IMG/VR virus record: IMGVR_UViG_3300037486_000490
Span: 1 to 64,000 of that record
Length of the DNA stretch: 64,000 nucleotides
Strand: one strand, 5' to 3'
DNA from: a virus
Part shown: positions 22,261 through 38,802 of the stretch, in pieces
Numbering within the stretch: the stretch's first letter is position 1
Layout of the letters: the number at the start of each line of letters is the position of its first letter
Position numbers and translations under genes: made by a program
Notes under the pieces: generated by a model
The model's database searches: none
What the model saw: only the letters and a program-made list of their open reading frames with translations
Told to the model about the DNA's origin: nothing

Positions 22261-22560
22261 TTAATTGATTGTTTTTCTTGGACGCTTAATACACAGTTGC
22301 TTTTCTATGTTGATCAGTCTTTCCTCGTGATCTTTATAGACTCTTATCTTAAGATCACAAACATCTGTCTGCACCTCCGCAAATTTCTTGTAGAAAGGAG
22401 CCAATACTTCTGCTATAGCTGCATCCTGCCTGTCGAATAACCGCTTGATGAAGACCAGGTCGTCTACCGTAAGATGCATGTTCTTATAGTTTAACTGGTA
22501 GTCCTTATCATCGAGGATCTTGTCCAGTTTTTCGTTATTGTTCATCTTATAATTCTCCAT
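22261..22560 (-). CDS. Hypothetical coiled-coil protein
   Basis: Coupled to the upstream gene by overlapping stop/start. Confidence 0.55.
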   Translation of the reverse strand: MENYKMNNNEKLDKILDDKDYQLNYKNMHLTVDDLVFIKRLFDRQDAAIAEVLAPFYKKFAEVQTDVCDLKIRVYKDHEERLINIEKQLCIKRPRKTIN

Positions 22561-23150: not shown

Positions 23151-25913
23151 TTATCGTGTTATCACAACTAATTTTCCACTGTTCATTTCCAGCTTGCTAT
23201 CGTTAATCAGATATCTTGCCCCACGCTCGAAGGCACCCAAATCTGGAAGATAGCCTCGTAGGTAGCCATCTCCGTCTGTTGTCACACCCGTACCTATTAT
23301 TCCCCTGTCTTTGCAGTCAGAGGTAGATGCTAAATGGAGATATGTTAATAAAGGTAGATTACCATTTGTCTGCCTTGCTCCACTGACTCCTGTTGTATCC
23401 ACTGAGACAAAATCTGCCGATGTTACAGCCGGACCTGTTGGCATCCATGTAGCATGATATGATAGACTATCTGTTATAACATTGGTAAGTGCAGCAGTAT
23501 TAAAATTATACTGGTTCTCGACACTGATTAAATTCTTAAACACAAATGGGAGCCATTCAAATCCACTGACAAGAAATCCTCCATACCCATTATCGTAAGC
23601 CGTACTATGATAAAAATATATCAGACACTTTGCGTTGTTGGTTGCAAAACCGCTTTGCCTATTGAGAAAAGAAAGACAATTTACCACAGTACGTGCGAAC
23701 ACGGTACTATCTGCCGTGTCTGTCCTTCCTAATTTAAACCCATTGCCATCTCCTCCGGTAGTGGACTGATTTTCTCTATATCCATTATGCCATGTCCAGC
23801 ATTTATCTAAAGTAACCTGACCATCGCTATCCCAGCAATCGTATCCATCGTCTGAGTTATTCCACGAGCGACAACCCGTTAGTGTTACGGTTGATCCTGC
23901 GGCACTCTCCTCCATTCCAAAACCATCAGCATTACCGTAAGCTCCAGGTGATACGGTATAAGGATCAACGTTTGCATAAGAATCACAGTTTGTAAATGTT
24001 ATATTATCAGTAGCCCCATAAGCCGAGCCTATTCCCACGCCTCCATTGTGATGTGACACACATCTTGTAAGGGACATGTCGGTACTGTATAGTATGGCAA
24101 TCCCTTGTGCCCAATCTCCAGTAGAATGCTGTGGTACGTTTTTAACCTGTAACCCTATCAGTTCCCAATAACTGCAATTTATAAGCACTATCCCATAATG
24201 AGGAGCATCTGCTGACATTGTTGCACAATCCAGTACAGGCGTTTCGCCTGTATAATTCAACACTACTATCGGATTAACTGTCGTACCGTCATGATTATTT
24301 ACACTTACCGCCCTATAATCAGATCCAACCAGTGTCCCTGCTGATGCATAAGTGCCGCCTCTGATGTATAATGTATCTCCGGTAGTAAGCGTTTCAAACC
24401 CTTTCTGCCATGTTGCCCAAGGTGTATCAAAAGAACCATCTCCAGTAATATCATCTCCCCAGAGAGCAACATAATATCCACCAAGATCTATAGCTCGTTC
24501 AAACGCTCCAATATCACAATTACTATCCACAGAAATCCCATCATAATCTGAAGTTAGATTAAGATCAAGACCTGCGTTAATACAGGGAGAGCTTGACTGA
24601 AGATGAAAGTCTGTCGTTGAAACAAAGTCGGGATTATCATTTATCGAACTGGCTTCATCAGATATTGCAGTCTGCCATGCGGCTAATGTTACATAGAATG
24701 TCCCTTCATCCTGTTCGGCAATAGTGTCAATATCATAATACAAGTTATAATCCATATTGAATTTAATCGTACTGGTATAACCTATTAATATTGCCTTGCT
24801 TCTCGATCCGTAATATATATTATTCAAAACATCGCATCCTGTTATTATACCCGATGTTGACCATGAGATAAAATGACAGTCATTGCCATCATCAGGACGT
24901 TGGTCATAACTAAAAGAATATCCTGAATTGATACAGGTATTATTTACAAAATCAACATTAGTCAGGGTATCTGTTCCTCCTGATGTACCCGACCATGTTT
25001 CAAACGAATAATGGCAGTTTGTAATTATATTATTATTTATTAAACAGTTGGTGACTGCGTAACCATCATTCCCCTGGGGACTTATTCCAGCGTCAAAACA
25101 TTGGTTTACCTTATTCCTGCGTATAATGAAATCAGAGTTATTATTCCATAAGGAAATACCATTCCCCAATCTCCTTTGATCTGATGTGCCTGGATTAATT
25201 AACCATTCTCCCCCTACCCATGAAACATCGCATAACTCAAAGATAATATGATCGCAAGCCTCAAACTCTACTCCCGCTGCTGAACTATACCTAAAATCAA
25301 GATCTTGTATATGTATATATGATGAATTGATAAACTTAAAAATCCCCTGCGCTGCACCGTAATTGCCACAAGCCTCTATATGCGAATAGAATGTTCCAGG
25401 GTTACTTGTCGAATATAGGTATAACAAATCACCAGTCCCGTTATAAAAGAACCTCCCTTGTGCGGTGAGACTATCAATATATGCAAACTTATAACCAACG
25501 CTTGCCTCACTATTAAAAACAATGTTGCTTATGTCATTCTGCTCTGTTCCAAGCGTAGCGGTTGTTTTCCAAATATTCCCCGAATGAACCTCCCAGGCTC
25601 CCGTTGCGCTTAAATCTTTTGAGCCAAGCATCAACGGTCTATTGCCTGTTCCATAAGCACCATAAAAGATATAGTCTGATGACGTACCATCCTCGTTCTG
25701 ATAGATGCTACCCCTAAATGTGTCACCGCGTTTAAATAGAATACTATCCCCGGCGGCAAAGGTTGTGGCATGAACCTTTGCGAGTGTTGCCCATGCAAGA
25801 GCCGTTGTCAGTCCACTATCACTGTCACTCCCGTCAGAAGATGACACATAATAGGTAGCCGCTGAAACCGTCAGGCTGCATATCAGTAAAAGTATTGTTA
25901 GTGCTTTCTTCAT
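23151..25913 (-). CDS. Secreted tandem right-handed beta-helix protein (pectate-lyase/PL9-like), 920 aa
   Basis: Signal peptide MKKALTILLLICSLTVSA; two beta-helix units (TYYVSSSDGSD...GDSILFKRGDTF and YYVALWGDD...GDTLYIRGGTY); NSDDGYD and GDGNGFKLG PL9-like motifs; DIGAFE and DLGAFE caps. Confidence 0.8.
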   Translation of the reverse strand: MKKALTILLLICSLTVSAATYYVSSSDGSDSDSGLTTALAWATLAKVHATTFAAGDSILFKRGDTFRGSIYQNEDGTSSDYIFYGAYGTGNRPLMLGSKDLSATGAWEVHSGNIWKTTATLGTEQNDISNIVFNSEASVGYKFAYIDSLTAQGRFFYNGTGDLLYLYSTSNPGTFYSHIEACGNYGAAQGIFKFINSSYIHIQDLDFRYSSAAGVEFEACDHIIFELCDVSWVGGEWLINPGTSDQRRLGNGISLWNNNSDFIIRRNKVNQCFDAGISPQGNDGYAVTNCLINNNIITNCHYSFETWSGTSGGTDTLTNVDFVNNTCINSGYSFSYDQRPDDGNDCHFISWSTSGIITGCDVLNNIYYGSRSKAILIGYTSTIKFNMDYNLYYDIDTIAEQDEGTFYVTLAAWQTAISDEASSINDNPDFVSTTDFHLQSSSPCINAGLDLNLTSDYDGISVDSNCDIGAFERAIDLGGYYVALWGDDITGDGSFDTPWATWQKGFETLTTGDTLYIRGGTYASAGTLVGSDYRAVSVNNHDGTTVNPIVVLNYTGETPVLDCATMSADAPHYGIVLINCSYWELIGLQVKNVPQHSTGDWAQGIAILYSTDMSLTRCVSHHNGGVGIGSAYGATDNITFTNCDSYANVDPYTVSPGAYGNADGFGMEESAAGSTVTLTGCRSWNNSDDGYDCWDSDGQVTLDKCWTWHNGYRENQSTTGGDGNGFKLGRTDTADSTVFARTVVNCLSFLNRQSGFATNNAKCLIYFYHSTAYDNGYGGFLVSGFEWLPFVFKNLISVENQYNFNTAALTNVITDSLSYHATWMPTGPAVTSADFVSVDTTGVSGARQTNGNLPLLTYLHLASTSDCKDRGIIGTGVTTDGDGYLRGYLPDLGAFERGARYLINDSKLEMNSGKLVVITR

Positions 25914-25915
25914 GG

Positions 25916-27640
25916 TTAGTTATTTGATCTGCAAATCTCAACCCAGTCGCCTATCGTACCCTCATATAAGAGTGTGATATTATCACCAATACCTATCACC
26001 ATCTGACCCGTCAGTCGTAACCCTGCGCTGTCATCAAGCGTCAATGTATTAGTATCACTGCTACCAATGATTGTTATTATCTGCCCCGTAGTACCGTTAG
26101 CTATCTGCGGATCTACACTTATGTCTATTGCCGCCGCTGTATTGAAATACATAAACCTTGACAGCATAACCGTTGTTATACCTGTCCCTGCTACCACTGT
26201 TCCTGTACTCTCTATTGATACAATTCCATTCTCATAATCAGTAAGCAAAGGAGCGACATCTCCAAGTTCCTCAGTCTCAAAGGATACTGTATCCGCAAAT
26301 GCGGCATCTACTTCTGCTTCCCGGATGTACGGAGTAAGCATTGATGCCGTATCACTCCTTGCTATATACCGGGTTAACATAGAAGCTGTATCTCCTCTGG
26401 CTATGTATGGCGTAAGCATGGAAGTGGTGTCCGAGATATTTACCTTTAGAGCTACGTTCGCTGTTGTAGCAAGTGTTCCTGATACTGGAAGGGTTATTGC
26501 TGTTGTTCCCGTAGTAGTGGCAGTTATGCCATGTCCACCCGATAAGGTTAATGACCCTGAGTTTCTTGTATAACCCGTTACAGTAGCCGCGTTACCCGTG
26601 ATACTACCCGCAATAGCATTGGTTACTTCAAGGTCGGTGAACCATCCCTTTGTCACTCTTGTACCTGTTACTCCTATAGAGCCTGTCATAGAAAGGTTAT
26701 TTGCTCCCAGAGCTAAATCTCCTCCACCTAATGTAAGAACGTTAGAAGAATGAGTAAGCGTTATATCTCCATTATTAAAATTAACTACTCCCCCTGATGC
26801 AAGAAACAAATCGCTCCACATTACAGAGGTAGTGCCCAGGGCAGCTCCATCGTTTGTGTCAGCGGTAATAGCCGTAGCTACGGTCGGGGTTCCTGTAAAA
26901 GCAGGCGAAGTAAACATTGTTGCCTTGCTCTCATTGGTTACGTTGCCTAATGATACATCTGTTGCTGTTAAAGAAAGCGCTGTCTTAAGGTTTGCAGCAC
27001 TGAGAGCCGTTATAGTATTATCCGCATTAAACCGAGGAAAGGTAACTGCACTGGGATTAACAAGGGTAAACATGCTTTGCCCTATAGTTGTACCACCAAG
27101 ACTTGTTCTACCCGTGGCTGCTACAAGACTGGTAGTACCACCATCCCACCTTAATCTCGCAACATAAGAACTATCCCAGTTGACAGAGTTATTGGTTATA
27201 CTTGTATTCCATGCGGCACCTGTGGATAGTGCTATACCGGCGGCAGGATACAGCATTGAACCCCCGCCCCCTACAATGGTCATATCACCGGAGCCAAGGA
27301 TAGGTAAGCCATTAATTGTTTTTATAGTTACACCTGACTCCAGTGAATCTTGCTTACCATCCAATTGAGCCTGAACAGATAACAGAGTATCAATCCCTAC
27401 CAGCATGTTCATCTCTGTAGCAGTTGCCAAAACACCATCGAGTACGGCAAGTTCTTCAGCATTAAAATCATACAGTCTTAAATCATTTAACAACACAATT
27501 GCACTGTTGGTCTTTATCGCTATTGTCCTGGGAGAATCTCCTACCGCACTAATAGCTGATGGAATAACAATCGTGGGGAGCTGTCCGAAAACAATTGTCC
27601 CCACTAATATCAGTAAAAGAGAAATTAGTATTTTTTTCAT
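25916..27640 (-). CDS. Signal-peptide-bearing tail-fibre-like protein, 574 aa
   Basis: MKKILISLLLILVGTIVFG|Q; T/G/A/S-rich; IKTING..ILGSG and DVSLGNVTNESK fibre motifs; DTASML repeats. Confidence 0.7.
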   Translation of the reverse strand: MKKILISLLLILVGTIVFGQLPTIVIPSAISAVGDSPRTIAIKTNSAIVLLNDLRLYDFNAEELAVLDGVLATATEMNMLVGIDTLLSVQAQLDGKQDSLESGVTIKTINGLPILGSGDMTIVGGGGSMLYPAAGIALSTGAAWNTSITNNSVNWDSSYVARLRWDGGTTSLVAATGRTSLGGTTIGQSMFTLVNPSAVTFPRFNADNTITALSAANLKTALSLTATDVSLGNVTNESKATMFTSPAFTGTPTVATAITADTNDGAALGTTSVMWSDLFLASGGVVNFNNGDITLTHSSNVLTLGGGDLALGANNLSMTGSIGVTGTRVTKGWFTDLEVTNAIAGSITGNAATVTGYTRNSGSLTLSGGHGITATTTGTTAITLPVSGTLATTANVALKVNISDTTSMLTPYIARGDTASMLTRYIARSDTASMLTPYIREAEVDAAFADTVSFETEELGDVAPLLTDYENGIVSIESTGTVVAGTGITTVMLSRFMYFNTAAAIDISVDPQIANGTTGQIITIIGSSDTNTLTLDDSAGLRLTGQMVIGIGDNITLLYEGTIGDWVEICRSNN

Positions 27641-28422
27641 GTCAGTGCCTTTTTATCAAGCAGTTTGTCACTTCCTTCCTGTACAGGATGCTGTGTAAAT
27701 TCTTTATTTGGCAGGTACAGACTCATCATTTCAAACCATTGCCGATACGTTAAGTCCCGGTGGAGTGTCTGTGCCCAATAGTAAGTGAAAATTCCACCAC
27801 CACTGGTGCCTATCTGGGCTTCTGTGGCAGTTTCGTTCTCTGCACAGGCACTTACCACTATCCGATTCAATCCTGGTTCTACGACCCTGCGAATGCGCTT
27901 ATGAGTGATTAATTCCTTACCCTCCGCAGGTGGCATAAACCTTGCCTTGTGGTAATGGGGATTATGCAGTTCCTTTGTAGCTGATCCTGAGTGGCAACTA
28001 TCAAGCACTACCACGAGTGTAACGCCTTCAGGTACATTCTCACATGCTGTATTAAGGTCATCGTCTATAAGGTTACCGTCATACAAGTACAGCGTTTCAT
28101 CGTACCCGTCAATCTCATCCCCGGATACATCTCGTACATAACTCCCGTGTCCGCTGTAGTGAAGATATATTACATCGCCTGCTATGGAATGCTCAATAGC
28201 GTAGCGCAGCTGGTCAATGAAGTTCTTCTTTGTTACCTGCCAATCAATGAATTCCCGTATCTGAAAGTCTGGCATCTTGGCTTTCATACGGTTGATGTCT
28301 TCATTACAGTAACGTAAATCGTTGCTGCTGCCCGGATAATTATTAATCCAGAACAGCAGCGCGATTTTACTATTATGTTCCCAGTTGGTTTTCACCGACT
28401 TTCGTTTGAAGCACATCATCAA
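27637..28422 (-). CDS. Metacaspase (peptidase C14 family)
   Basis: Catalytic dyad motifs LHYSGHGS and VLDSCHSG; INNYPG...LRYC.ED, DEIDGYDE, SACAENE. Confidence 0.9.
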   Translation of the reverse strand: MMMCFKRKSVKTNWEHNSKIALLFWINNYPGSSNDLRYCNEDINRMKAKMPDFQIREFIDWQVTKKNFIDQLRYAIEHSIAGDVIYLHYSGHGSYVRDVSGDEIDGYDETLYLYDGNLIDDDLNTACENVPEGVTLVVVLDSCHSGSATKELHNPHYHKARFMPPAEGKELITHKRIRRVVEPGLNRIVVSACAENETATEAQIGTSGGGIFTYYWAQTLHRDLTYRQWFEMMSLYLPNKEFTQHPVQEGSDKLLDKKALT

Positions 28423-28426
28423 ATTG

Positions 28427-28915
28427 TTAGAATGTTACAGTAGGACCCCAGCCAATATACCAGTTAGCTTTGGCGGGATTGTTCTTTACAAAATCATAGC
28501 CGGCTACCATACTCAGCGAAAGTCCTTTTACATCGAGTACCGATGCTGAAAGAGCAACACCTGCATAAGGTTGTTCGACGGTTGCCACACTTATCATAGC
28601 TGCAAATGAGTAATCATTATAAGGTTTGTCACTCACAAGCTTGTAATGGGAATAGCTTAAGCCGAATCCTGCGCGTGATACGAACGTGCTTTCAAACTGC
28701 AAGAACTCACCAAGCTCATTATAAGACGACTTCACCACTTGAGCCATTATCAGCATCTCAGGACGGAACAGGAACGAGCTTACTGCATCTTTGGATCCGC
28801 TTACACTCTGGATACGTTCAACCGTTACCGGTTCAAGAAATCCTTTAAAGAGACCCTGGGCGTTAGCCATTGTCATAGACAACAGCAGAACTGCGAGAAA
28901 TAGAAGTTTTTTCAT
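28427..28915 (-). CDS. Secreted small beta-rich protein, possibly an outer-membrane beta-barrel
   Basis: Signal peptide ...TMANA|Q; amphipathic strands; C-terminal YIGWGPTVTF ending in Phe. Confidence 0.55.
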   Translation of the reverse strand: MKKLLFLAVLLLSMTMANAQGLFKGFLEPVTVERIQSVSGSKDAVSSFLFRPEMLIMAQVVKSSYNELGEFLQFESTFVSRAGFGLSYSHYKLVSDKPYNDYSFAAMISVATVEQPYAGVALSASVLDVKGLSLSMVAGYDFVKNNPAKANWYIGWGPTVTF

Positions 28916-28916
28916 G

Positions 28917-29276
28917 TTACTTTCCTTTATTAATTATTTGTTTTTCACGGTACATCCTGGTGTTAATCTCCTTGGATTTAACTACATCGACTTTCTTGAA
29001 CAGGAACTTCATTACCGTATTCACAAGCCAGGCTACCATAGATCCTTCTTTGATCTTGCCTGTCTGACCGAGCCATGTCTCAATAGGTATGAGAATTACC
29101 AGAGCAACCATTGCCCAGTTGGCTTTCACAAGTCCCAGGAGAAACTGGAACATATCATTGAATGTCATGCCTTGATGCACAACCGTGCTGTCCACTGGTG
29201 TGGAATCAACAACCTGTCCCGATACGACCATAGCCGTAATCAGGAGTACTGTCATAAGTAAAATACTCTTTTTCAT
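28917..29276 (-). CDS. Membrane protein with signal peptide (holin-like)
   Basis: Signal peptide ...VVSG|Q, one further TM segment, basic C-terminus. Confidence 0.5.
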   Translation of the reverse strand: MKKSILLMTVLLITAMVVSGQVVDSTPVDSTVVHQGMTFNDMFQFLLGLVKANWAMVALVILIPIETWLGQTGKIKEGSMVAWLVNTVMKFLFKKVDVVKSKEINTRMYREKQIINKGK

Positions 29277-29298
29277 GTTTAATTATTATTTAAGTGAT

Positions 29299-29406
29299 TC
29301 AAATACAATACTCTACAAAAATGTAGCTGCCAAAAGCTATGCAACCCAGAAGTCCAAGTTCTATGACTCTCATTGCAATGACGATTAATACTACTGCTGT
29401 TCTCAT
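29299..29406 (-). CDS. Possible 35-aa hydrophobic peptide
   Basis: Hand translation MRTAVVLIVIAMRVIELGLLGCIAFGSYIFVEYCI*; fills an intergenic gap. Confidence 0.35.
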   Translation of the reverse strand: MRTAVVLIVIAMRVIELGLLGCIAFGSYIFVEYCI

Positions 29407-29473
29407 GGATATTACTTTTTAGCAAGTTAATTCCATGAATATTCAACCGACACCAGACTGCCGGAAAGGGTTA

Positions 29474-29509
29474 TTATATCTATAACCCTTTTACAAGGAA
29501 AGGTTTATA
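29474..29509. repeat. 36-bp intergenic direct repeat, copy 1 (imperfect hairpin)
   Basis: TTATATCTATAACCCTTTTACAAGGAAAGGTTTATA; 34/36 identical to 37746-37781. Confidence 0.9.
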
Positions 29510-29517
29510 AGATGCGT

Positions 29518-29820
29518 TTAGGGAAGAGGCGGAAAAGTATTCGGTACCCAGGGCATCAGTTCTGCAACAAGTTGAACGAATATCCATCCGAGTATGCCTG
29601 CTGCGTTCCATGCCATATCCCAGGCACTGATAAATTCTTTATCATGATATTTATCCCATAATTCTTTACCCACAGCAACCAGCCCTGCAATTCCCATTGC
29701 AAGCAACCTGGGAATAAGTGTCTGCCAATATTCATTTCCGCCTATAGAAGGCGAGAGAAAATTGTACGTTACATCTGTTATGAAGTAACATGCCAGAAAA
29801 TGTAAGAGTGCTTCTATCAT
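29518..29820 (-). CDS. Small multi-TM membrane protein (VanZ/YfiM-like pattern)
   Basis: LHF...; GKELWD...D..WNAAG pattern with three hydrophobic segments. Confidence 0.55.
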   Translation of the reverse strand: MIEALLHFLACYFITDVTYNFLSPSIGGNEYWQTLIPRLLAMGIAGLVAVGKELWDKYHDKEFISAWDMAWNAAGILGWIFVQLVAELMPWVPNTFPPLP

Positions 29821-29830
29821 CTTTTATTAT

Positions 29831-30922: not shown

Positions 30923-30924
30923 AG

Positions 30925-32460
30925 CTATTTTACTGGTATTCCTTGATATATTATAAGTTTACTTCCGTTTACTATTGGCAATACTATATTACTATCCCCA
31001 CTTTCATACCATCCAAGATCAGGAGCAGAGCCATTATAAATAATCCCAAGACTTGACATATTATCATCAGTTACACCTCCATCAATCAAATCTGATGTTG
31101 GATCAAGTTTTCCAAAATCAACATCAGGCAATGAACCATCTGTCTTTCTTGATGCTAAAAGTTCATTAACATCCAAACTTATAAAATCATCAGCTGTAAC
31201 AGTAAATGAAGGATTGTCTTGCCAAAAAGGACTGCTACCATAACTTTGGAAAGTATTATGGTCCAGCGTAAAAACCCAACTCATATTATCTTGAGCCCAA
31301 GGAATATTAAACCAAGGGTAATCAGAATCAAGATAAGATATATTATTTCTATAAATACACCATGAAGCTGCAAGTGGACTTTCAGTACAATTCTGTACAA
31401 GATATCCTATTTTATTATTATATGATATGTTATTATATGTCCAAGCTCTCGTCCATTCATCTCCTAAAGCATTATTAGGATCATAACTAAATCCCATATT
31501 ATTAGCAGATATATTATTATGTGTAATTCTTGAAATATAATCTGGTGTATGAGGAGGAGGATCACCTATCTTAAATCCATTACCCTCTGATGCTGATAAT
31601 GTTGGATCGCCATTATTAAATGCCCAACAGTTACGCATTACTGTAAGACATAATTGATCTAAATTAATACCATCATCAGCATTACCCCATGCTCTACATC
31701 CTTCTAATAATCCATAATTTGTAGTAAAATCATCATACTGTTGTAGAAAAAATCCATCTGCTCCATTACCAGCTTGTCTTAACCATGTCACACCAAGGTC
31801 AAGTGTATAGGTACTAAGACTATCAGCATTATCATAAGCATCACAATTTATCCACATACTTGTATCTACTATTGATAAATTATAATTGAATATGTTAAAT
31901 CCAGCACCACCATTATGATGTGAATGACATCTATCAAAGATTAAATTTGTGCAATCACTACTTGTCCATCCAGGAGTTTTATGACCATATTCTCCATAAT
32001 TTACCAAGTCTATACTTCTTTGGTCTTGTCTTACATTACATATAGTTAATCCAACAAACTTGACATAATTACAATTAGAAAATTCTAATCCATTATTATA
32101 TCCTTGAGGTGATGCAACTTGATATCTGCAATCAAGAACAGCGGAATCTCCTACAGCAAGTTCTGGCGGATACAGTGAAATAACCAATGGAGCTGCACGT
32201 GAAGATGTCATACCATCTAAATAAACATACGCTGATCTTGTGGTTTCATTTGCTGGTGTATATCTTCCTGCTCTAATATATAACGTATCACCAGCTGATA
32301 ACATTTCTACCCCATGCTTCCATGTTGCCCATGGTGTTGAAATACTTTGTGCTTGAGTTGTAGTTCTACTATCATTACCATTTGTTGCAACATAGTACGT
32401 AGTAGCTGATACATTTAATGATATTAAAATCAATAATAATATAATAAATCTTTTTATCAT
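30925..32460 (-). CDS. Secreted right-handed beta-helix protein (PL9/pectate lyase L-like)
   Basis: Signal peptide ...LNVSA; TYYVATNGND, AGDTLYIRAG, GNADDG, EGNGFK, NGSAPDLGWYE. Confidence 0.8.
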   Translation of the reverse strand: MIKRFIILLLILISLNVSATTYYVATNGNDSRTTTQAQSISTPWATWKHGVEMLSAGDTLYIRAGRYTPANETTRSAYVYLDGMTSSRAAPLVISLYPPELAVGDSAVLDCRYQVASPQGYNNGLEFSNCNYVKFVGLTICNVRQDQRSIDLVNYGEYGHKTPGWTSSDCTNLIFDRCHSHHNGGAGFNIFNYNLSIVDTSMWINCDAYDNADSLSTYTLDLGVTWLRQAGNGADGFFLQQYDDFTTNYGLLEGCRAWGNADDGINLDQLCLTVMRNCWAFNNGDPTLSASEGNGFKIGDPPPHTPDYISRITHNNISANNMGFSYDPNNALGDEWTRAWTYNNISYNNKIGYLVQNCTESPLAASWCIYRNNISYLDSDYPWFNIPWAQDNMSWVFTLDHNTFQSYGSSPFWQDNPSFTVTADDFISLDVNELLASRKTDGSLPDVDFGKLDPTSDLIDGGVTDDNMSSLGIIYNGSAPDLGWYESGDSNIVLPIVNGSKLIIYQGIPVK

Positions 32461-33344
32461 GGGATTATTCCTTTACTATTTGAATCCATATATGCTTCAA
32501 AATTATCTACAATAGCATCTCTCATTGCAGTAGTGATATGTTCAGCAACAAAAGCAAGTGATACTTGTGCTACTGAATAAAATTCCCTTGTATAATTTTT
32601 TCTTGCCAATATGTTAAATTCCATTGTAGGTAGTCCAACGCTATTGGCTGTGGCAGGATCAGAAGTACTGGTTGTTTTATTTTTATATAAGATCACAGCA
32701 CTTGAACTTGTTCTTGTTGTTATCCATAATGCAGCGTGTGCATTACTTGTAGTTTCAGTATAACTTACTGTAACATCATTAAGAGAAAAAACAATCTCCC
32801 CAGACGAATAAGGTTGCAAACAAGTATTTTGAACGCCATCAGATACACCAAGATAACATCCTTCATTTGCTGGGTTTGCAGCCGTTCTGGAGTAGACGCC
32901 TATTGCTCCACTATTCTGAGTAAAATTAACTCCATCAGTGGATGGTACAAAATCAGTGCTAATATATTGAGATGTTCCATTACCAGTAAATCCTTCAAGT
33001 GTAGTAAATGATGCACTATAGTTTGTACAATCATGATCTCTCTCAACTGCATTTCTTAAAGATGACTCTGATGTCTCATTTGCAAGAATATACATTGCAT
33101 CAAATACATCAGATAGATTAGTAATACCTAAGTCACTTTTAAGATCGGTAAAGAATGTATTTAACTTATCGAGTTGTCCACTACTTAATTCAGTAGTAAG
33201 ACCATTAATATACGTTTCAAGATCAGAGTCATATCCTCCCCCTTGCTCTGTAGCAACAGGAACATGAAACGGATGTCTTGCAATCTGCCCCTGGACTGGC
33301 AGAAGTAGTAAAACAAGTAGCCATATTGAAAATAGTCTTCTCAT
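32457..33344 (-). CDS. Secreted protein with a lectin/LamG-like beta-sandwich
   Basis: Signal peptide ...PVQG|Q; GFTGNGTSQYIST, GVYSRT, beta-rich. Confidence 0.55.
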   Translation of the reverse strand: MRRLFSIWLLVLLLLPVQGQIARHPFHVPVATEQGGGYDSDLETYINGLTTELSSGQLDKLNTFFTDLKSDLGITNLSDVFDAMYILANETSESSLRNAVERDHDCTNYSASFTTLEGFTGNGTSQYISTDFVPSTDGVNFTQNSGAIGVYSRTAANPANEGCYLGVSDGVQNTCLQPYSSGEIVFSLNDVTVSYTETTSNAHAALWITTRTSSSAVILYKNKTTSTSDPATANSVGLPTMEFNILARKNYTREFYSVAQVSLAFVAEHITTAMRDAIVDNFEAYMDSNSKGIIP

Positions 33345-35467
33345 TACCAGTTCCTTATTTTATAACCAGACATTGTTAAACTTAGCAAACTTGGTTTATT
33401 GCCAGCCGATACTGCTGAAATAGTACACCATACCCAGACATTAGGTGGTATTTCATTATTTGTAAAACTCGTATCTTCATCGCCAGTAGTAATACTGGTT
33501 ATAGTATAAGCCGCAGAATTGAGGTTTGTGGCAGAACCACTCTTAAATGTACCATGCCAACTGATCTGAACCCCGACTGTTTCTGTTCCAGACCCTTCAG
33601 CTAAAACTCCCCTTATAGAAGTGATATGAAGTGTATCAGCGCCAGCATTATAAAATGCTCCTGAGATAGCATTATTATTAAATACTACTGTATCTGCCGA
33701 TATTCCAGAGCCAAGTCCAAATATGAATATTGGAATGGTATCTATATTAAGTCTGGCATTAAGTGTAATTAAATCTTCAACATCCTCTTCTGTTACTGTT
33801 CCCGTTCCTCCATAGGTTCTTGCGTAAGATTGTGTAGCTAATGTATCTGTTGTACTAACTTTTTGAACTCCAGTGAAAGTTGGATTTGCAAGTGGAGCAT
33901 AAGTTGACGAAACCTCAGAACTAAGTATATAGTGAGTTAACATTGAGGTAGTATCAGATACGTTTACTTTGTTAGTTAAGCCGGTTGTTAGATCATAATT
34001 TGAAGCATAATGCCCTGGACCAGCCGTGCTATCGGCAAGCATAACTGCAATATCAGATATTTCTAATCCTGCTCCTATCCTTGCATCAAGACTATCATTA
34101 ATATTTTGTGTGGTGGAAAGAGTCCCGGATGTTGGCAGAGTTACAGTTGTAGATGCTATGGTTGTAAAGGTTAGTGCATCAGCACCCGAAAGCGTTAATG
34201 ATCCACTGGCAGGGGTGAAACCCGTCACTGTTGCAGCAGTCTCACTATCCAATAAATAATTACCCAACATAGAAGCCGTATCTGCCACCTCTATATAAAG
34301 AGGTCGTAAAACATTCAGACTATCAGCAATTTCATCCCTGACATCTCCTATTGTTACTGTACCAATACCGCCATAAGATCTTGCATAAGACTGGGTAGCA
34401 AGTGTATCAGTTGTACTATATTTAGGAAGAACACCCGTGAAAGTCGGAGATGTAAACATTGTTGCCTTACTTTCGTTGGTAACATTTCCTAAACTTACAT
34501 CAGACGATGTCAATGAGAGAGCAGTCTTGAAGTTTGCTGCACTTAAAGCATCTACGGTGTTATTTGCATTTACACGAAGAAAGGTTATTGCCGATGGATT
34601 TGTGAGAGTTAACAGGTTTGAACCAACTGTTGACTGAGCAACAAACCCCATGTTTCCATACTCGTCAATATTCAATAAATTCGTGGTTCCAGCAGAAGGT
34701 AGTGCAGCTATCGGAAGTCGATAACTCCGATTTGCAGTTGGAGCTCCTCCTTGTAGTGCTGTCCAAAATCCATTACTTCCATAAAAATAAAGTAGGCTTC
34801 CTCCATCAGATGTACCATCAAAATAAGGCGCAGCAGTACCATTACCCACAAGACCAGCTCTATCCCATACTGTTGAGTTATTGGTTATTGTAGTTCCCCA
34901 TGATGATCCGCTTGTTACAATAGGTATTCCTGAACCACTTGGATAAACCATTGAAGCTCCTTCTCCAACTTCCGTTAACAAAGCATACGTACTAAGCATT
35001 GTGGCTGTATCTGCTACGGCTACATATAAAGGTCGAAATACATTAAGACTGTCAGCAATCTCATCACGAACATCTCCAATAGCCACCCCTCCTGATCCAC
35101 CAACAAGTCTTGCATAAGCTCTTGTAGCAATAGTATCAGTTCCTATCCCCACAAGTTTGTTAAGCTCTGTATATGTGACCAGGGCTCCATCAAGGACATT
35201 TAATTCCTGACCGTTTGATGTTATCGTCACCGCATTGACCCTCCATGTAACAGGAAGTGATACCGTACCAGTGAATGTAGGTGATGCCAAAGGAGCTTTA
35301 GCTGTTTGTAAAATAGTTATTGAATCACTCGCTATCTCATCGTTAGCATTAATTATAGTTCTTGCCGTAGTCCATGTTCCTCCTGCGGGAATTGTGGTAA
35401 TAGTCTGTGCCATCAAACCTACTGAGAGTAAGACTACACCGAATATTATAAGTAATATTTTTTTCAT
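33344..35467 (-). CDS. Signal-peptide-bearing tail-fibre-like repeat protein, 707 aa
   Basis: MKKILLIIFGVVLLSVGLMA|Q; APLASPTFTG x2, TDTLATQSYAR x3, IGDVRDEIADSLNV x2. Confidence 0.7.
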   Translation of the reverse strand: MKKILLIIFGVVLLSVGLMAQTITTIPAGGTWTTARTIINANDEIASDSITILQTAKAPLASPTFTGTVSLPVTWRVNAVTITSNGQELNVLDGALVTYTELNKLVGIGTDTIATRAYARLVGGSGGVAIGDVRDEIADSLNVFRPLYVAVADTATMLSTYALLTEVGEGASMVYPSGSGIPIVTSGSSWGTTITNNSTVWDRAGLVGNGTAAPYFDGTSDGGSLLYFYGSNGFWTALQGGAPTANRSYRLPIAALPSAGTTNLLNIDEYGNMGFVAQSTVGSNLLTLTNPSAITFLRVNANNTVDALSAANFKTALSLTSSDVSLGNVTNESKATMFTSPTFTGVLPKYSTTDTLATQSYARSYGGIGTVTIGDVRDEIADSLNVLRPLYIEVADTASMLGNYLLDSETAATVTGFTPASGSLTLSGADALTFTTIASTTVTLPTSGTLSTTQNINDSLDARIGAGLEISDIAVMLADSTAGPGHYASNYDLTTGLTNKVNVSDTTSMLTHYILSSEVSSTYAPLANPTFTGVQKVSTTDTLATQSYARTYGGTGTVTEEDVEDLITLNARLNIDTIPIFIFGLGSGISADTVVFNNNAISGAFYNAGADTLHITSIRGVLAEGSGTETVGVQISWHGTFKSGSATNLNSAAYTITSITTGDEDTSFTNNEIPPNVWVWCTISAVSAGNKPSLLSLTMSGYKIRNW

Positions 35468-35527
35468 CGTATTATTTCTTTATTATCGTTATTCGTATAG
35501 TGTGTTTTATATTACCTAATTTCACAA

Positions 35528-36682
35528 CTACCCATATACATTAGACCAATCATTATTATAAGCACACAATGCACCACTACTTAATGCTGCCCATGCTGCA
35601 GTATTTGTAACTTCAGGTATGGCATCTCCATTGCGATACTTAGTTTCACATAAATTATCTGCCAACCACTCCTGTGTACCTATACAAATAGTTCTATATA
35701 TTCTTCCATCATTCCCCACATATACTCCATATTGACCATGTGCTAGAGTAGTGCTATTTTTTACAAACCTAATTGGTAATCCACTTTTTAGTGTATGATA
35801 TTGTGAATCTTCTATAACAAAATCCTCAAATATTACATTAATTGCTGCATGATAAGGATGAGTAGTATTTATGAGTGTTGCTGACCAATAATCGTATTCT
35901 ATCTGGAAGGCATCAAATACCCCTTCCTTTGTCCTGTAACCAGCTCCAATAGCGTTAAACCCAAGTTCATTTGTTCCTTCATTAGTAGTCCAATAATCAA
36001 GTCCCATAGTCCTTAATTTAAAACATCCATTAGGGTTTATATAGTCTCTCTTAATTACTATATCATTATATGTTGGCACATGCCATCCATTAGATGCAAT
36101 ATTTCTTGCATCATTTACAACATACCAATTATAGAAAAGTCCATACAAAGGAGGATCAGTTTCAACAAACGTCCTATTATCCTTCATGTACCCGGACTCC
36201 ATCATTGTTTCACCCCAATATTGAACCCATAACTTAAAGAACTTATTTAAAACTACTTTATCTGATTCTGTGAGAACTTCACCGGTTTTAAGAATACCTA
36301 TTGCCGATACATCATAAGGTTCGAAATCGGCATATTTGATAAATGTCCTGGTTGTAGTACTAATAATAAGGTTGGCATGTGTCTTCTGCTGAAGCACTCC
36401 GGCACCATTGAACCACCAGTCATCTGTACCATCTGCTGCCAGATAGGTTGCATTATCAGGTACAGCAAAGGTTGCCTCAGTATCAGGAGGGATATATTTT
36501 GTACTCCAGTTCTTTCCTGTAACAGTTATGACAGAAGAATCAAGATCAGAAAGCAAATCATCCCCGTCATACTTGCCGGTCCATAGGAATAGGAACTTGG
36601 CTTTTAATGCCGCAGGCAAGCCATGACTCCTGTTATAGTTGGGAGTGACCAGATTGCAACGACCTAATCCATTAAATCCCAT
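35528..36682 (-). CDS. Protein with a FISUMP (Fib_succ_major, C-type-lectin fold) domain, circularly permuted
   Basis: YGLFYNWY, GWHVPT, GFNAIGAGYR, YWS, IRFVK, then YRTICIGTQEWLADNL...YRNGDAIP. Confidence 0.8.
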   Translation of the reverse strand: MGFNGLGRCNLVTPNYNRSHGLPAALKAKFLFLWTGKYDGDDLLSDLDSSVITVTGKNWSTKYIPPDTEATFAVPDNATYLAADGTDDWWFNGAGVLQQKTHANLIISTTTRTFIKYADFEPYDVSAIGILKTGEVLTESDKVVLNKFFKLWVQYWGETMMESGYMKDNRTFVETDPPLYGLFYNWYVVNDARNIASNGWHVPTYNDIVIKRDYINPNGCFKLRTMGLDYWTTNEGTNELGFNAIGAGYRTKEGVFDAFQIEYDYWSATLINTTHPYHAAINVIFEDFVIEDSQYHTLKSGLPIRFVKNSTTLAHGQYGVYVGNDGRIYRTICIGTQEWLADNLCETKYRNGDAIPEVTNTAAWAALSSGALCAYNNDWSNVYG

Positions 36683-36690
36683 AACTTTAG

Positions 36691-37002
36691 TTAAACTTCA
36701 AACACATTGAATACCGTACAAATATTTGCAATACCACCAAGTACCGCAACTTTATCTCCAATAACTACAGGAAGCCAAAGCTCCCCACCGGATGGTATAA
36801 AAATAGATGTAGCAAGTGCAGTAGGATTAACTCCTGTAAGCACACGGATATCTGCATCTGTTGCCACAATACGCACAAGGTTTCCTGCAATTGCAGCACT
36901 CTGAACAGATGCAGCTGTACCATTTACATCCTGTGATGCTGTAAGTCCCATTACGGGAATTGGATTACCATTGGCATCCATCAACATAACTGCCTTCGAC
37001 AT
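36691..37002 (-). CDS. Small beta-rich hypothetical protein
   Basis: Co-oriented 103-aa ORF. Confidence 0.6.
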   Translation of the reverse strand: MSKAVMLMDANGNPIPVMGLTASQDVNGTAASVQSAAIAGNLVRIVATDADIRVLTGVNPTALATSIFIPSGGELWLPVVIGDKVAVLGGIANICTVFNVFEV

Positions 37003-37022
37003 TGTAATTTATTTTAGTATTG

Positions 37023-37661
37023 TTAATAGGTAATGTAGGTGATGTAAACTCTCCACTCACCGTTGGTTGTGGTAGCCCAGTTTTGATCCGGATCAAATGA
37101 CAACCATACTTTTGTAGCAGCAGTGTAACTCATTACAACAGCCACTGGAAGGGCAGGGTTTATAACTCCTACCACCTCGTTCTGAGTATCACATGATGCA
37201 GCTACAATAAATTGTGCGCCTGCGGAAGCATTGCCGGCTGCTATGGTAATATCGGAAGCTCCAGCAGAGTTGACAAAGTCGTTTGAAGCAACGATCTGAA
37301 TGTCAAGAACTTTTGATCTTGCAGGTATAATTGCTCCCAAATCCAGGTTATATGCAGTATGATTGGCAGCTGCAACAGGAAGGTAAAAGTCATACCCTAC
37401 GGCATACCCTAAAAGTGCAATACCTTTCTGGATGGTATATATTCCAGCCATACTAACCCCATTCACTTCCGGAGTAACCGTAAGCAGATCAGGAGCTGCA
37501 AGTTGGGAATATACAGACTGAAAATTTTGATTGGTAACCCTCATAGCAGTACCAAGCCCATCACCGCCTGAGCCATTACGACCTTTACCGGGATTAAGAA
37601 GTACCTGACCATATCCTGAGAGTGAGAGGATGCAGAACAATAAAACAAGAAGTTTTTTCAT
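37023..37661 (-). CDS. Signal-peptide-bearing fibre/decoration-like protein
   Basis: MKKLLVLLFCILSLSGYG|Q, followed by GSGGDGLGTAMRVTNQNF (related to the DDGTGD.LR.AF..VN fibre anchor); beta-sandwich C-terminus. Confidence 0.65.
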   Translation of the reverse strand: MKKLLVLLFCILSLSGYGQVLLNPGKGRNGSGGDGLGTAMRVTNQNFQSVYSQLAAPDLLTVTPEVNGVSMAGIYTIQKGIALLGYAVGYDFYLPVAAANHTAYNLDLGAIIPARSKVLDIQIVASNDFVNSAGASDITIAAGNASAGAQFIVAASCDTQNEVVGVINPALPVAVVMSYTAATKVWLSFDPDQNWATTTNGEWRVYITYITY

Positions 37662-37745
37662 GATTTTATGATTTAAATGATATAATGTGCAACACTAAAT
37701 TAAGCCATGTCATTCTGGATAGTAAAAATATACGTACCAGAAACG

Positions 37746-37781
37746 TTATATCTATAACCCTTTTACCAGAAAAGGTTTATA
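37746..37781. repeat. 36-bp intergenic direct repeat, copy 2
   Basis: TTATATCTATAACCCTTTTACCAGAAAAGGTTTATA. Confidence 0.9.
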
Positions 37782-38800: not shown

Positions 38801-38802
38801 AA

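Follow-up and report, generated by a model that had tools for sequence, protein, structure and literature searches.

To our knowledge, the fibres of all known tailed phages assemble in the cytoplasm and lack signal peptides. We know of no described tailed phage that exports such fibre-type proteins to the periplasm, and of no precedent for a tailed-phage virion being built from periplasmic parts. Several described systems resemble the locus analysed here in one respect or another. The swappable fibre modules of Crassvirales and of podoviruses occupy the same slot and share SPxFTG repeats, a proximal fibre with HxH motifs, variable distal ends, and cassette exchange with it; known fibres are signal-less, whereas the distal fibre homologues described here almost always carry an SPase I site followed by Gln, or a lipobox. 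Exposure of Gln at position +1 by the SPase I cut is the Q-rule of Bacteroidota (PMC5837995), and prophages of P. gingivalis carry five scattered Q-rule genes of unknown function that were read as Sec-using and possibly envelope-altering (Matrishin et al. 2023, PMC10367356). Those prophages and our phage are both Bacteroidota phages in which a predicted SPase I cut exposes Gln, but here, as far as a comparison by description goes, the genes form a conserved multi-gene module of fibre homologues, glycanases, and lectins in the structural region.

The lom and bor genes of phage lambda are morons in the tail-fibre region, and Lom is a small outer-membrane barrel. Llp of phage T5 is a superinfection-exclusion lipoprotein encoded next to the receptor-binding gene (PMC9586334). 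Together with Cor, these are exported phage proteins from within or beside the tail-fibre region, as are the ones described here, among which the product of gene 28427 may be a Lom-like small outer-membrane barrel. However, they are single, small, self-regulated proteins unrelated to fibres, whereas our locus encodes seven large glycan-directed proteins with no promoter found, and a Pfam search detected no homology to Llp, Cor, or Lom. A right-handed Pel9A-like beta-helix, a fibre-adjacent position, and presumed polysaccharide degradation are shared with the tailspike depolymerases of P22, K1F, and Klebsiella phages and with soluble phage depolymerases, but classical tailspikes are signal-less and carry a particle-binding domain at the N-terminus, while here the helix runs from the cleavage site and the proteins are Cys-rich and similar to T9SS cargo. 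Bacterial T9SS beta-helix enzymes (Bacteroidota, FCB group) have in common with the phage copies a signal and a 'TYYV..G.D....PW.TW' start, at up to 53% identity, but the phage copies lack the Ig-like spacers and the PF18962 sorting domain. Lastly, Bacteroidota O-glycosylate exported proteins at the motif D-S/T-A/I/L/V/M/T (PMC8550257); these proteins are Sec-exported and motif-rich, as are the fibres described below, for which glycosylation is predicted from the motif. In the literature searched, we found no report of O-glycosylation of this Bacteroidota D-S/T-A/I/L/V/M/T type on a phage protein.

Signal peptides in the tail-fibre region of a Crassvirales phage

The window, that is, the whole 64,000-nt stretch of DNA that was analysed, belongs to a divergent Crassvirales phage from sediment. 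It encodes a crAss-type major capsid, portal, and terminase (phrog_11589, E 3e-97; phrog_6547, E 9e-123), the capsid being ~34% identical to those of cr8_1 and crAss002, as well as a giant virion RNA-polymerase-like ORF of >3932 aa that extends beyond the window end. The phage is probably temperate; a tyrosine integrase is encoded by it and by two other carriers of the module described below, and an integrase search in a further carrier (G008) gave no match. A cassette of genes outside the phage core gene set, many with signal peptides, follows the capsid, ring, and proximal-fibre genes and precedes lysis-like genes. The genes are listed below and named by their lower coordinate; "exported" stands for predicted export, and a slash marks the predicted cut.

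37023..37661, minus strand: exported 212-aa protein (GYG/Q), signal peptide followed by a fibre-type N-terminal motif (GDGLGTAMRVTNQNF)
36691..37002, minus strand: conserved signal-less protein of ~104 aa, immediately preceding the adaptor gene in every phage that bears the module
35528..36682, minus strand: signal-less protein with an N-terminal ~175-aa domain and a Fib_succ_major lectin-like domain
33344..35467, minus strand: exported fibre, 707 aa (LMA/Q), fibre repeats and 14 O-glycosylation sequons
32457..33344, minus strand: exported ConA-like lectin/jelly-roll protein, 295 aa (VQG/Q)
30925..32460, minus strand: exported Pel9A-like beta-helix (Pfam), 511 aa (VSA/T), 11 Cys
29831..30922, minus strand: exported 363-aa protein (ISA/Q), 44% identical to the C-terminal extension of an 866-aa beta-helix protein of G007
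29518..29820, minus strand: hydrophobic membrane protein, 100 aa, weak DUF2279 match
29298..29405, minus strand: unannotated, strongly hydrophobic 36-aa ORF within a 241-nt gap
28917..29276, minus strand: 119-aa protein (VSG/Q) with two DST sequons, a second hydrophobic segment, and a basic tail
28427..28915, minus strand: exported small beta-barrel-like protein, 162 aa (ANA/Q), ending in ...TVTF
27637..28422, minus strand: caspase-like cysteine protease (Peptidase_C14), no signal peptide, Pfam 79.5 bits against a cut-off of 21.4
25916..27640, minus strand: exported paralogue of fibre 33344, 574 aa (VFG/Q), differing distal end
23151..25913, minus strand: exported 920-aa protein (VSA/A), 21 Cys, C-terminal half a Pel9A-like beta-helix paralogous to 30925

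An earlier note on this DNA had pointed to nine ORFs with Sec-type N-termini, and all nine exist, on the minus strand with their starts at the higher coordinate, as 9 of the 14 consecutive minus-strand genes at 23151-37661. Each begins with M-(K/R)(K/R), a hydrophobic core of 11-17 residues, and a small/neutral (-3,-1) site. The note had also counted Gln at +1 in seven of them, which we confirm for 37023, 33344, 32457, 29831, 28917, 28427, and 25916; the two beta-helix ORFs have Thr or Ala at this position. The best 9-residue Kyte-Doolittle mean of the nine cores is 3.0-4.0, and for the other 32 ORFs in the 11.8-55.4 kb region it stays at 2.2 or lower. Signals were called by a heuristic of hydrophobicity, charge, and cleavage site, together with conservation across homologues. 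Genome-wide, ~15 of 121 ORFs are signal-peptide-like, and the 14 neighbouring genes account for nine of these (hypergeometric p ~7e-7).

Fibre 33344 typifies a family of >440 proteins, nearly all of which have a signal peptide or lipobox. About 105 of its best 120 homologues (30-45% identical) carry a signal, which is an SPase I site with Gln in about 74 and a lipobox in 31, and the 15 signal-less ones include at least nine with truncated signal peptides and five fragments. A signal peptide is likewise present in 89/120 beta-helix homologues. As the fibre N-termini are conserved across a large, divergent family while switching between SPase I plus Gln and a lipobox, they behave as export signals, and this interchange is sensible only for envelope targeting. 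The predicted export of the cassette proteins is well supported by the signals and their family-wide conservation, and fibre-like and glycan-directed products that are normally cytoplasmic would thus seemingly be sent to the periplasm.

Cassette borders and recurrence of the module

The borders of the cassette are marked by two copies of a 36-nt element, and the flanking genes belong to the phage backbone.

39192..41252, minus strand: signal-less tail fibre, 686 aa, with the N-terminal motif 'NVG..DDGTGD.LR.AF..VN' and HxH motifs
37793..39189, minus strand: pair of genes without signals (128 aa and 335 aa) that immediately follows the proximal fibre, the backbone end before the cassette
37746..37781, minus strand: 36-nt element, copy 1, hairpin AACCTTTT/AAAAGGGTT, 12 nt past the stop of gene 37793, the point at which contigs of the source sample break
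29474..29509, minus strand: 36-nt element, copy 2, 94% identical to copy 1, 9 nt past the stop of gene 29518
22560..23039, minus strand: 159-aa coiled-coil protein with a membrane segment at its N-terminus, conserved in G001, downstream backbone marker

These direct repeats are confined to the two borders and enclose 8.27 kb. Contigs of the source sample show assembly-graph breaks and depth steps at the repeat, and the two sub-clusters of signal genes are unequal in depth and borders. The GC content of the cassette is 0.34-0.36, compared with 0.45. The closest relative (91% capsid identity) lacks the cassette and has signal-less genes at the equivalent slot, and in relatives G001-G005 the slot is filled by signal-less fibre genes, with content that is hypervariable between close relatives. 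Because of its low GC, the bracketing repeats, its absence from the 91%-identical relative, and the graph breaks, we regard the cassette as a mosaic that was swapped in. Its genes are tightly spaced and co-oriented with the late genes; a search with one simple promoter consensus (TAnnTTTG) gave no match in the two gaps and four matches elsewhere in intergenic late DNA. The hairpin repeats sit directly behind the upstream stop codons and have no T-run.

A search of other phages for the same signal-peptide cluster recovered a module that recurs in unrelated complete phages. It consists, in order, of the ~104-aa protein, the ~175-aa signal-less domain, and three exported proteins (a fibre, a ConA-like lectin, and a beta-helix), followed by a small membrane protein, and in G007 the order also includes the caspase; the carriers share no core genes. 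The ~175-aa domain is 60-68% identical across unrelated phages. Eight loci have sequence downstream of this candidate tail-borne adaptor, and in seven of them (G000, G007, G008, L091, L095, L116, and L117; the exception is L118) an exported fibre comes as the next large gene, also at loci whose adaptor lacks its own distal domain. In the tail region of G007, every protein >400 aa carries a signal. A fibre profile had no match in 401 sampled Bacteroidia-class genomes, and searches of 50,697 deposited phage records and of PHROGs gave no homologue of the exported distal fibres. The proposal that these genes make up a dedicated exported apparatus is therefore favoured by the recurrence of the module in several unrelated phages, but not in the form of a single native system, as the cassette is a mosaic. 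Judged from its genes, it is a swappable set of predicted fibre-like, sugar-cutting, and sugar-binding proteins at the tail-fibre site.

Proteins of the cassette and its lysis-side neighbours

Three of the signal-bearing ORFs had been called tail-fibre-like, which holds for 33344 and 25916, with their repeats and homology to 39192; 37023 has only the N-terminal fibre motif. Fibres 33344 and 25916 are paralogues (35% over 478 aa), both with SPxFTG-type repeats and with shaft segments (36-53 aa) that are 51-67% identical to parts of the signal-less fibre 39192. Once the signal is removed, the mature N-termini of the exported fibres match the N-terminal motif of signal-less fibres. Neither 33344 nor 25916 has a sequence match in Pfam, PHROG, or PDB. 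Fibre 39192 is probably a virion-borne proximal fibre, and in the unrelated phages G007 and G008 its last ~54 aa (ending in AFGTP) show 63% conservation.

The O-glycosylation motif D[ST][AILVMT] occurs 14 times in 33344 (4.2 expected), seven times in 25916 (4.0 expected), and 1614 times in the fibre family (440 expected; 2.1 sites per 100 aa; O/E 3.5-4.1). The relatedness of family members means that such enrichment and conservation statistics overstate independence; among 35 representatives <50% identical to each other, the O/E is 3.49, with 32/35 above 2. Permuted control motifs gave an O/E of 0.86-1.21 in the same family, and signal-less fibres and late proteins 0.5-0.9. Among the cassette proteins the enrichment is found only in the fibre family (beta-helix 1.35, lectin 0.3-0.9, barrel 0.59), and it could be a fold-intrinsic repeat instead of a glycosylation signature.

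The two ORFs previously described as beta-helix polysaccharide-lyase-like match PF22842/PF13229 (E 3e-22 and 2e-11), at 79.5 bits for 23151 and 44 bits for 30925 against a cut-off of 25.2. The helix of 30925 begins right at the cleavage site, residues 1-140 of 23151 resemble the start of the beta-helix proteins of G008, and neither these proteins nor the lectin have a particle-binding domain behind the signal peptide. The mature beta-helices contain 11 and 21 Cys, as against one per exported fibre, and the genome encodes no signal-less twin of them. Their best non-phage match is a bacterial T9SS cargo (53% identical) with PF18962, and the nearest predicted structures to 29831 are bacterial T9SS-sorted proteins; both 29831 and the beta-helix proteins have the appearance of extracellular enzymes captured from bacteria. 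As the earlier note had observed, the nine ORFs have no T9SS C-terminal domain (none at E up to 5). Lacking PF18962, the phage beta-helices would not use the T9SS and would remain periplasmic until lysis. The ConA-like domain of the lectin is found elsewhere in phages as a signal-less fusion to tail-tube domains or to the 175-aa adaptor, and thus appears to have two delivery formats.

The beta-barrel 28427 had been suggested as a possible anchor, a role that does not fit its relatives, as it forms a separate family with 28917 and is elsewhere part of one protein beside holin/endolysin-like genes, fused behind a membrane domain. Since this family adjoins such genes in other phages, 28917 and 28427 look like lysis or envelope proteins and probably stand outside the exported glycan-directed set. 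The C-terminus ends in Phe in 48/67 representatives of the 28427 family, consistent with a signal peptide combined with an aromatic beta-signal. The AF2 model of 28427 (pLDDT 89) has six long strands; a Foldseek search with it returned nothing below 1e-3, and the VIA-align scores to OmpW (Z 5.5), OprF-N (5.4), PagL (4.8), and NspA (4.5) all lie under the caution line of Z 8.

Possible destinations of the exported proteins

We tentatively favour, at a probability of roughly 0.4, a horizontally mobile, glycan-directed cassette at the tail-fibre/lysis junction of a phage with a Bacteroidota host, whose products are exported and freed at lysis, with the fibres docking on virions. The cassette genes would be transcribed alongside the late structural genes, and Sec would translocate the fibre homologues, the ConA-like lectin, the two beta-helix glycanases, and the 363-aa accessory protein. 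SPase I would then expose Gln, which host glutaminyl cyclase could convert to pyroglutamate, and the proteins would fold in the periplasm, where disulfides could form in the Cys-rich beta-helices and the many D-S/T-hydrophobic sites of the fibres could receive O-glycans. Lysis would release the periplasmic proteins, so a T9SS domain would be unneeded. The fibres may dock through their conserved N-terminal domain onto signal-less tail-borne partners, namely the 175-aa domain of 35528 and the conserved end of 39192, while the enzymes and lectin may act free or loosely attached. Actual export, cleavage, glycosylation, and late timing are what we infer from these features, and docking on virions after lysis most weakly; release and docking are our best guess for the destination. 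The missing particle-binding domains of the beta-helices and lectin count against virion loading, and about a quarter of the fibre homologues are lipoproteins, which would be membrane-tethered and fit such loading poorly unless a protease frees them.

That lipobox in 31/120 fibre homologues leads to a possible, though doubtful, alternative, in which the proteins are exported, never enter virions, and act on the envelope of the producing cell. The beta-helix enzymes would destroy nascent capsule or O-antigen receptor, and soluble or lipid-anchored fibres and lectin would mask receptors, so that superinfecting phages are excluded and progeny kept off debris, a scaled-up receptor-destroying or Llp-type function. 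T5 Llp (PMC9586334) and the P. gingivalis prophage Q-rule proteins (PMC10367356) are precedents, no anchor domain separates the signal peptide from the start of the beta-helices and lectin, receptor-binding candidates without a signal remain (39192, and 35528 with its lectin domain), and the closest relative does without the cassette. On the other hand, many glycosylation-type sites and proteins of 500-900 aa seem excessive for one late period, the mature N-termini keep a fibre attachment-type motif, stand-alone 175-aa adaptors require a partner, the G007 tail-region proteins >400 aa all bear signals, and no signal-less beta-helix twin is encoded. If the cassette were instead a lysogenic-conversion moron, with prophage-expressed adhesins and glycanases that alter the surface, nutrition, or adhesion of the lysogen, this would agree with the integrases of this phage and two module carriers, the foreign composition, the terminator-like hairpin repeats behind the upstream stops, and the presence of an OMP-like barrel, as in lom. 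We give this little credence, as the TAnnTTTG search gave no Bacteroidota-type promoter in either gap, packing is tight and orientation shared with the late genes, G008 has the module but no integrase match, the sampled Bacteroidia-class genomes lack the fibre profile, and the family has tail-fibre repeats and N-termini.

Fibre-gene position, fibre repeats, and fibre N-terminal motifs after the hydrophobic segment would also suit ordinary cytoplasmic virion fibres and spikes, with uncleaved N-termini serving for inner-membrane tethering, trimer nucleation, or tail burial. The complete three-part signals with their (-3,-1) sites and a Gln at +1, the SPase I/lipobox interchange, and the descent of the Cys-rich beta-helix proteins from secreted bacterial enzymes make this improbable. 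It is similarly hard to credit a reading without any single system, in which genes were acquired independently at a recombination hotspot (captured exoenzymes of the host whose signals are vestigial, lysis proteins, and a protease for defence or counter-defence) and the signal peptides cluster as a by-product. The unequal sub-clusters, the hypervariable content, the grouping of 28917/28427 with lysis genes, and the match of caspase 27637 to a defence-library model point that way, but the same gene order recurs in phages without common core genes, and signals are kept across hundreds of divergent homologues.

Several neighbouring genes also have counterparts in these phages. A 33% identical copy of the caspase lies within the G007 module, and the corresponding place in G001 is taken by a papain-like protease. 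Gene 28917 corresponds to the N-terminal half of 258-299 aa proteins of G001 and G008. Likened by position alone, a ~107-aa membrane protein of G007 and G008 matches 29518, and 134- and 324-aa genes of G001 match the 128- and 335-aa pair. The 159-aa protein 22560 appears holin- or i-spanin-like.

Signal peptides in the fibre cassette

The window belongs to a 92.5-kb sediment contig of IMG/VR, and every gene between ~11.8 and 55.4 kb lies on the minus strand. Its capsid and portal genes, together with the giant ORF, mark it as a crAss-like phage, with a capsid only ~34% identical to those of cultured or named Crassvirales. A MAG contig of Prolixibacteraceae (L002, DMFR01000207) carries a capsid gene at 69% identity.

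Landmark genes in the window
45796-47250, minus strand: major capsid protein (phrog_11589, E 3e-97)
48452-50815, minus strand: portal protein (phrog_6547, E 9e-123)
50883-52928, minus strand: 681-aa ORF upstream of the portal gene, probably the terminase, which aligns with the large ORF that takes this position in the unrelated phage G008
Window start: giant ORF of more than 3932 aa

An earlier note had read nine ORFs at 23151-37661 as carrying Sec signal peptides, and our analysis, which counts 14 consecutive genes there, bears this out. Each opens with M-(K/R)(K/R), followed by a hydrophobic core of 11-17 residues and a (-3,-1) site, and Gln occupies +1 in seven of the nine, as claimed; the other two are beta-helix proteins with Ala or Thr there. 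These calls rest on a heuristic combining charge, hydrophobicity and cleavage site with a 9-residue Kyte-Doolittle scan, in which the nine ORFs score 3.0-4.0 against at most 2.2 in all 32 other late ORFs. Signal-like ORFs number about 15 genome-wide, nine of them inside this 14-gene neighbourhood (p ~7e-7). Pfam matched the two proteins called beta-helices (30925 and 23151, both Pel9A-like) and found a T9SS domain in none of the nine, again as the note had stated; with the sorting domain absent, T9SS secretion of the cassette proteins was ruled out. The suggestion of three tail-fibre-like proteins held for 33344 and 25916, which are paralogous fibres, and for the exported 212-aa protein 37023 the likeness consists of the fibre N-terminal motif after its cleavage site. 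PHROGs and Pfam gave no match for seven of the nine signal-bearing proteins.

The fibre 33344 (707 aa) has 443 homologues at E <1e-5, every one of them metagenomic. In the best 120 the signal is of the SPase I type with Gln next to the site in ~74 and of the lipobox type in 31. The other 15 lack one: at least nine of these sequences open partway through a signal peptide that has been cut short, five more are fragments, and only P0115 has a genuine signal-less fibre N-terminus. Overall identity is 30-45%, and at this distance the hydrophobic cores differ in sequence but not in character. Such conservation across the family indicates that the signals are functional, and the interchange of SPase I and SPase II sites between homologues makes sense only if they serve envelope targeting. 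On these sequence grounds we consider export of the cassette proteins well supported, with a probability of about 0.85.

The exported fibres can be compared directly with fibres that lack a signal. The N-terminus of 39192, a signal-less fibre, is MAIELINVGLAADDGTGDLLRDAF, while the cleavage sites (marked by a slash) read YGQ/LSQINVGTSANDGTGESLRSAF in the 33344 homologue P0057 and GQ/...GSGGDGLGTAMRVTNQNF in 37023. The motif downstream of the cleavage site in exported fibres is thus the extreme N-terminal motif of signal-less ones, which suggests that a signal has been placed ahead of a complete fibre. Signal-less fibres of this kind are found in the window (39192-41252) and in the unrelated phages G007 (38932-39948) and G008 (85850-87571). 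Like T4-type fibre tips, 39192 has HxH motifs in repeated copies. Its last ~54 aa, with AFGTP at the very end, show 63% conservation between phages that have no core genes in common, and this segment may be a docking knob. Single-protein locus scans of viral and genome contigs with 39192 and 37793 recovered zero relatives, and a PDB sequence search with 39192 and with the fibre profile A2 gave no match.

Bacteroidota O-glycosylate exported proteins at D-(S/T)-(A/I/L/V/M/T) (PMC8550257). This motif occurs at 14 sites in 33344 against 4.2 expected, and at 1614 sites against 440 expected in 119 homologues (O/E 3.67). Among 35 representatives below 50% identity the ratio is 3.49, exceeding 2 in 32 of them, and it stands at 4.14 in the lipobox subfamily and 3.50 in the SPase I subfamily. 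In the fibre N-terminal domain the site stays DSI, DSL, DSM or DST as its neighbours change. Control motifs (reversed, permuted, or E- or N-substituted) gave 0.86-1.21, late proteins of relatives 0.85, and signal-less fibres with common shaft segments ~0.5-1.0 (39192, 3 sites against 3.1 expected; the 1016-aa fibre of the closest relative, G001, 2 against 4.2; G007_38932, 0 against 1.4). The enrichment is restricted to the fibre family, with beta-helix proteins at 1.35 and the lectin and barrel below 1. These statistics are drawn from related sequences, and a fold-intrinsic repeat could also account for the enrichment.

A swappable module in unrelated phages

The earlier note had proposed a single dedicated apparatus. 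What we found instead is a swappable module outside the core equipment of the phage, in a slot whose contents differ between relatives. In G001, whose capsid is 91% identical, the same slot holds six genes, one of them signal-bearing; in the more distant relatives G002-G005 it holds signal-less fibres, and a signal-like ORF of at least 120 aa is present in only 2 of 81 related capsid loci. GC content at 30-34 kb is 0.34-0.36, compared with ~0.45 elsewhere. A 36-nt hairpin element occurs in exactly two copies within the window (37746-37781 and 29474-29509), which bracket 8.27 kb and sit 9-12 nt past the stop codons of 37793 and 29518, and is absent from all other fetched loci. In the probable source run, contigs end inside the upstream copy (37760-37782), and contig depth steps from 14.8 upstream to 8.4 in the cassette, while the intervals 27.0-29.9 kb and 22.9-26.9 kb stand at 12.7 and 8.2. 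These breaks and depth steps suggest co-existing phage variants that differ at the cassette locus, a hint only, as the run is possibly the record's own source; runs X2 and X3 contain only short and diverged matches. Separately, summed contig depth is two- to three-fold higher over the 3' part of 29831 (29830-30400), a 363-aa exported protein, and three sediment runs show short 'skips' of 96-176 nt there, as if this domain were common to other organisms or variable in length. The 241-nt gap separating the sub-clusters contains an unannotated, very hydrophobic 36-aa ORF (29298-29405, minus strand).

The note had also suggested a search of other phages for the signal-peptide cluster, and the cluster does recur. 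It is carried by G007 (71.6 kb, terminal repeats), whose core has no similarity to that of the window's phage, by G008 (99.9 kb, terminal repeats, capsid 24% identical), and by the fragments L091, L095, L116 and L117. The module starts with a ~104-aa protein like 36691 and a ~175-aa signal-less domain corresponding to the N-half of the adaptor 35528. Next is the fibre, either exported or a lipoprotein, and behind it follow an exported protein of 177-308 aa resembling 32457, a beta-helix that is likewise exported and, last, a small membrane protein. The ~175-aa domain is by far the best conserved part, at 60-68% identity between carriers. The module families had zero matches among 50,697 deposited phage genomes or PHROGs, and profile A2 matched 0 of 401 Bacteroidia-class genomes in a sample that had no positive control. 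G007 also contains a giant ORF of 3911 aa. A common 'ISGIYQIKS'-type N-terminus opens at least four of its ORFs (8172-8870, 21832-22515, 36919-37704 and 58819-59535), which, judged by eye, may be GIY-YIG homing endonucleases.

Enzymes, lectin, protease and a candidate envelope pair

A beta-helix family of more than 1390 members, mostly bacterial, takes in 30925 and the C-half of 23151. Many of its members are T9SS cargo with PF18962, including an 838-aa protein that is 53% identical. The phage members retain the signal and the 'TYYV..G.D...PW.TW' start and are missing the sorting domain; 30925 and 23151 have 11 and 21 Cys, against one per fibre. The closest predicted structures to 29831 are likewise T9SS-sorted proteins (TM 0.75, a lead only), and in G007 a 29831-type domain is fused behind a beta-helix. 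The confident model of 32457 (pLDDT 87) is a helix followed by a ConA-like jelly roll, which resembles the trans-sialidase lectin domain and CBM40. Distant relatives of 32457 are signal-less fusions with tail-tube domains or with the 175-aa adaptor domain, so this glycan-binding domain appears to exist in two formats, virion-fused and exported. In 35528 the adaptor domain is joined to a Fib_succ_major lectin-like domain; the adaptor domain had no usable match in the ESM Atlas.

The sole PADLOC match was the caspase 27637. A signal-less cysteine protease occupies this spot in the window (27637-28422), G007 (51141-52058) and L083 (4476-5441), being caspase-like C14 in the window and G007 (33% identical) and papain-like C1 in G001; fibre maturation, lysis and counter-defence are candidate roles. 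Lipobox-type fibres keep an R/K-A-I-D/N-P-T site aligned with the SPase I mature end, and a cytoplasmic protease of the 27637 type might free lipid-tethered fibres by cutting there. An analogy with type V pili, which have lipoprotein precursors and a clan-CD protease, was rejected, as the cassette showed no homology to pilins and its protease is signal-less.

The putative barrel 28427 (ANA/Q, C-terminus ...TVTF) had been proposed as a fibre anchor, together with membrane proteins, and this was not borne out. Phe is the terminal residue in 48 of 67 family representatives. The family takes two forms, an exported protein of ~155 aa on its own and a longer one of 230-300 aa in which a membrane domain comes first; the 299-aa protein of G008 is 28917 and 28427 joined. 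The gene adjoins holin-, spanin- or endolysin-like genes in G001, G007, G008 and L117, and given this neighbourhood we rejected an anchor role for 28427 and 28917. The model of 28427 has long antiparallel strands (pLDDT 89); structural alignment gave OmpW, OprF, PagL and NspA at Z only 4.5-5.5, and Foldseek no significant match. We read the pair as a candidate envelope-disruption device, probably outside the fibre set. A membrane N-domain with a Phe-ending, OMP-like barrel is encoded in the window (28427-29276, split), L083 (3679-4455), G008 (82929-83828) and G007 (52157-52945), always beside genes of holin or endolysin type, and this family could be a one-piece inner-to-outer-membrane lysis protein, a spanin substitute, of Bacteroidota phages.

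Possible destinations of the exported proteins

The cassette genes run close together with those of the late operon. A TAnnTTTG promoter is missing from both cassette gaps, although the remainder of the late region has four intergenic ones, and the cassette is therefore likely to be expressed late. The fibres would be Sec-exported, capped with pyroglutamate or parked by a lipid, and coated with host O-glycan in the periplasm, where the Cys-rich, T9SS-cargo-related enzymes would mature alongside these sequon-rich fibres, both being proteins that evolved for a life outside the cell. The lytic burst would release the exported proteins, making a T9SS signal unnecessary, and the fibres would first meet the virion at lysis, docking on the conserved signal-less adaptor. 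We tentatively favour release at lysis and docking over an envelope role, as mature fibre N-termini equal signal-less ones and the genes lie where fibre genes belong. A 175-aa adaptor that stands alone also needs a partner, unrelated carriers conserve the tip of 39192, and every protein above 400 aa in the tail region of G007 bears a signal. That some tailed phages of Bacteroidota build their distal host-recognition parts outside the cytoplasm in all of these respects (exported, pyroGlu-capped or lipid-anchored, host-glycosylated and docked at lysis) is a more doubtful proposition.

Similarly doubtful is an envelope-resident, non-virion role in receptor destruction or masking. It would suit the quarter of fibres that are lipoproteins and the existence of signal-less receptor-binding candidates, the enzymes and lectin have no anchor domain, and T5 Llp offers a precedent (PMC9586334); the fibre N-termini and the adaptor speak for docking. 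Lysogenic conversion appears improbable for a cassette with likely late expression, in a phage that does encode a tyrosine integrase. We give equally little credence to classical fibres with uncleaved N-termini, each of the nine ORFs having a cleavage site, and to there being no system at all, with the same gene order recurring in unrelated phages.

In textbook phage biology, tail fibres and depolymerases fold and join the particle in the cytoplasm, and annotation pipelines treat the absence of a signal peptide as a sign that a protein comes from a phage. A paper on diversity-generating retroelements of phages explicitly made the same assumption, that phage proteins typically have none (PMC6199706). 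The only published precedent we found is that of P. gingivalis prophages, which encode five Q-rule proteins of unknown function (PMC10367356), and our literature search found no paper joining 'Crassvirales' with 'signal peptide'. Given such scarce precedent, we regard the module as a new variation on phage fibre and accessory cassettes: a large, phage-restricted family of fibre homologues has a nearly universal signal peptide or lipobox, and its genes move as a module between unrelated phages. Docking or glycosylation, if true, would be a new assembly route, and a host O-glycan coat would make this the first host-glycosylated phage fibre. Should the proteins reach the virion, particles could bear host-type glycans and pyroGlu caps, which would matter for the stability of Bacteroidota phages, gut crAss-like phages among them, for their escape from immunity or proteases, and for predicting their host range; should they stay in the envelope, they would represent new, large-scale receptor destruction or masking. 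For either destination the 175-aa adaptor, the fibre N-domain and the sequons are concrete experimental targets, and genuine receptor-binding genes of phages will be lost to filters on signal peptides.

ARAGORN placed a suppressor-type tRNA (anticodon TTA, reading TAA) and an adjoining tRNA-Met at 59921-59989 and 59323-59397; despite the suppressor-type tRNA, the late genes examined are open in the standard code. Three small plus-strand early ORFs with signal-peptide or lipobox N-termini, at 63492-63902 in the window (136 aa) and at 63899-64174 (91 aa) and 64372-64791 (139 aa) in locus G000, are candidates for classical exclusion or conversion proteins, distinct from the fibre cassette. Capsid proteins with predicted signal peptides have been described in P. 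gingivalis phages (PMC10367356). A 457-460 aa protein with a strongly hydrophobic N-terminal segment occupies the expected capsid-gene position, behind a Ser/Ala-rich scaffold-like gene, in G007 (34495-35877) and L092 (3517-4890).
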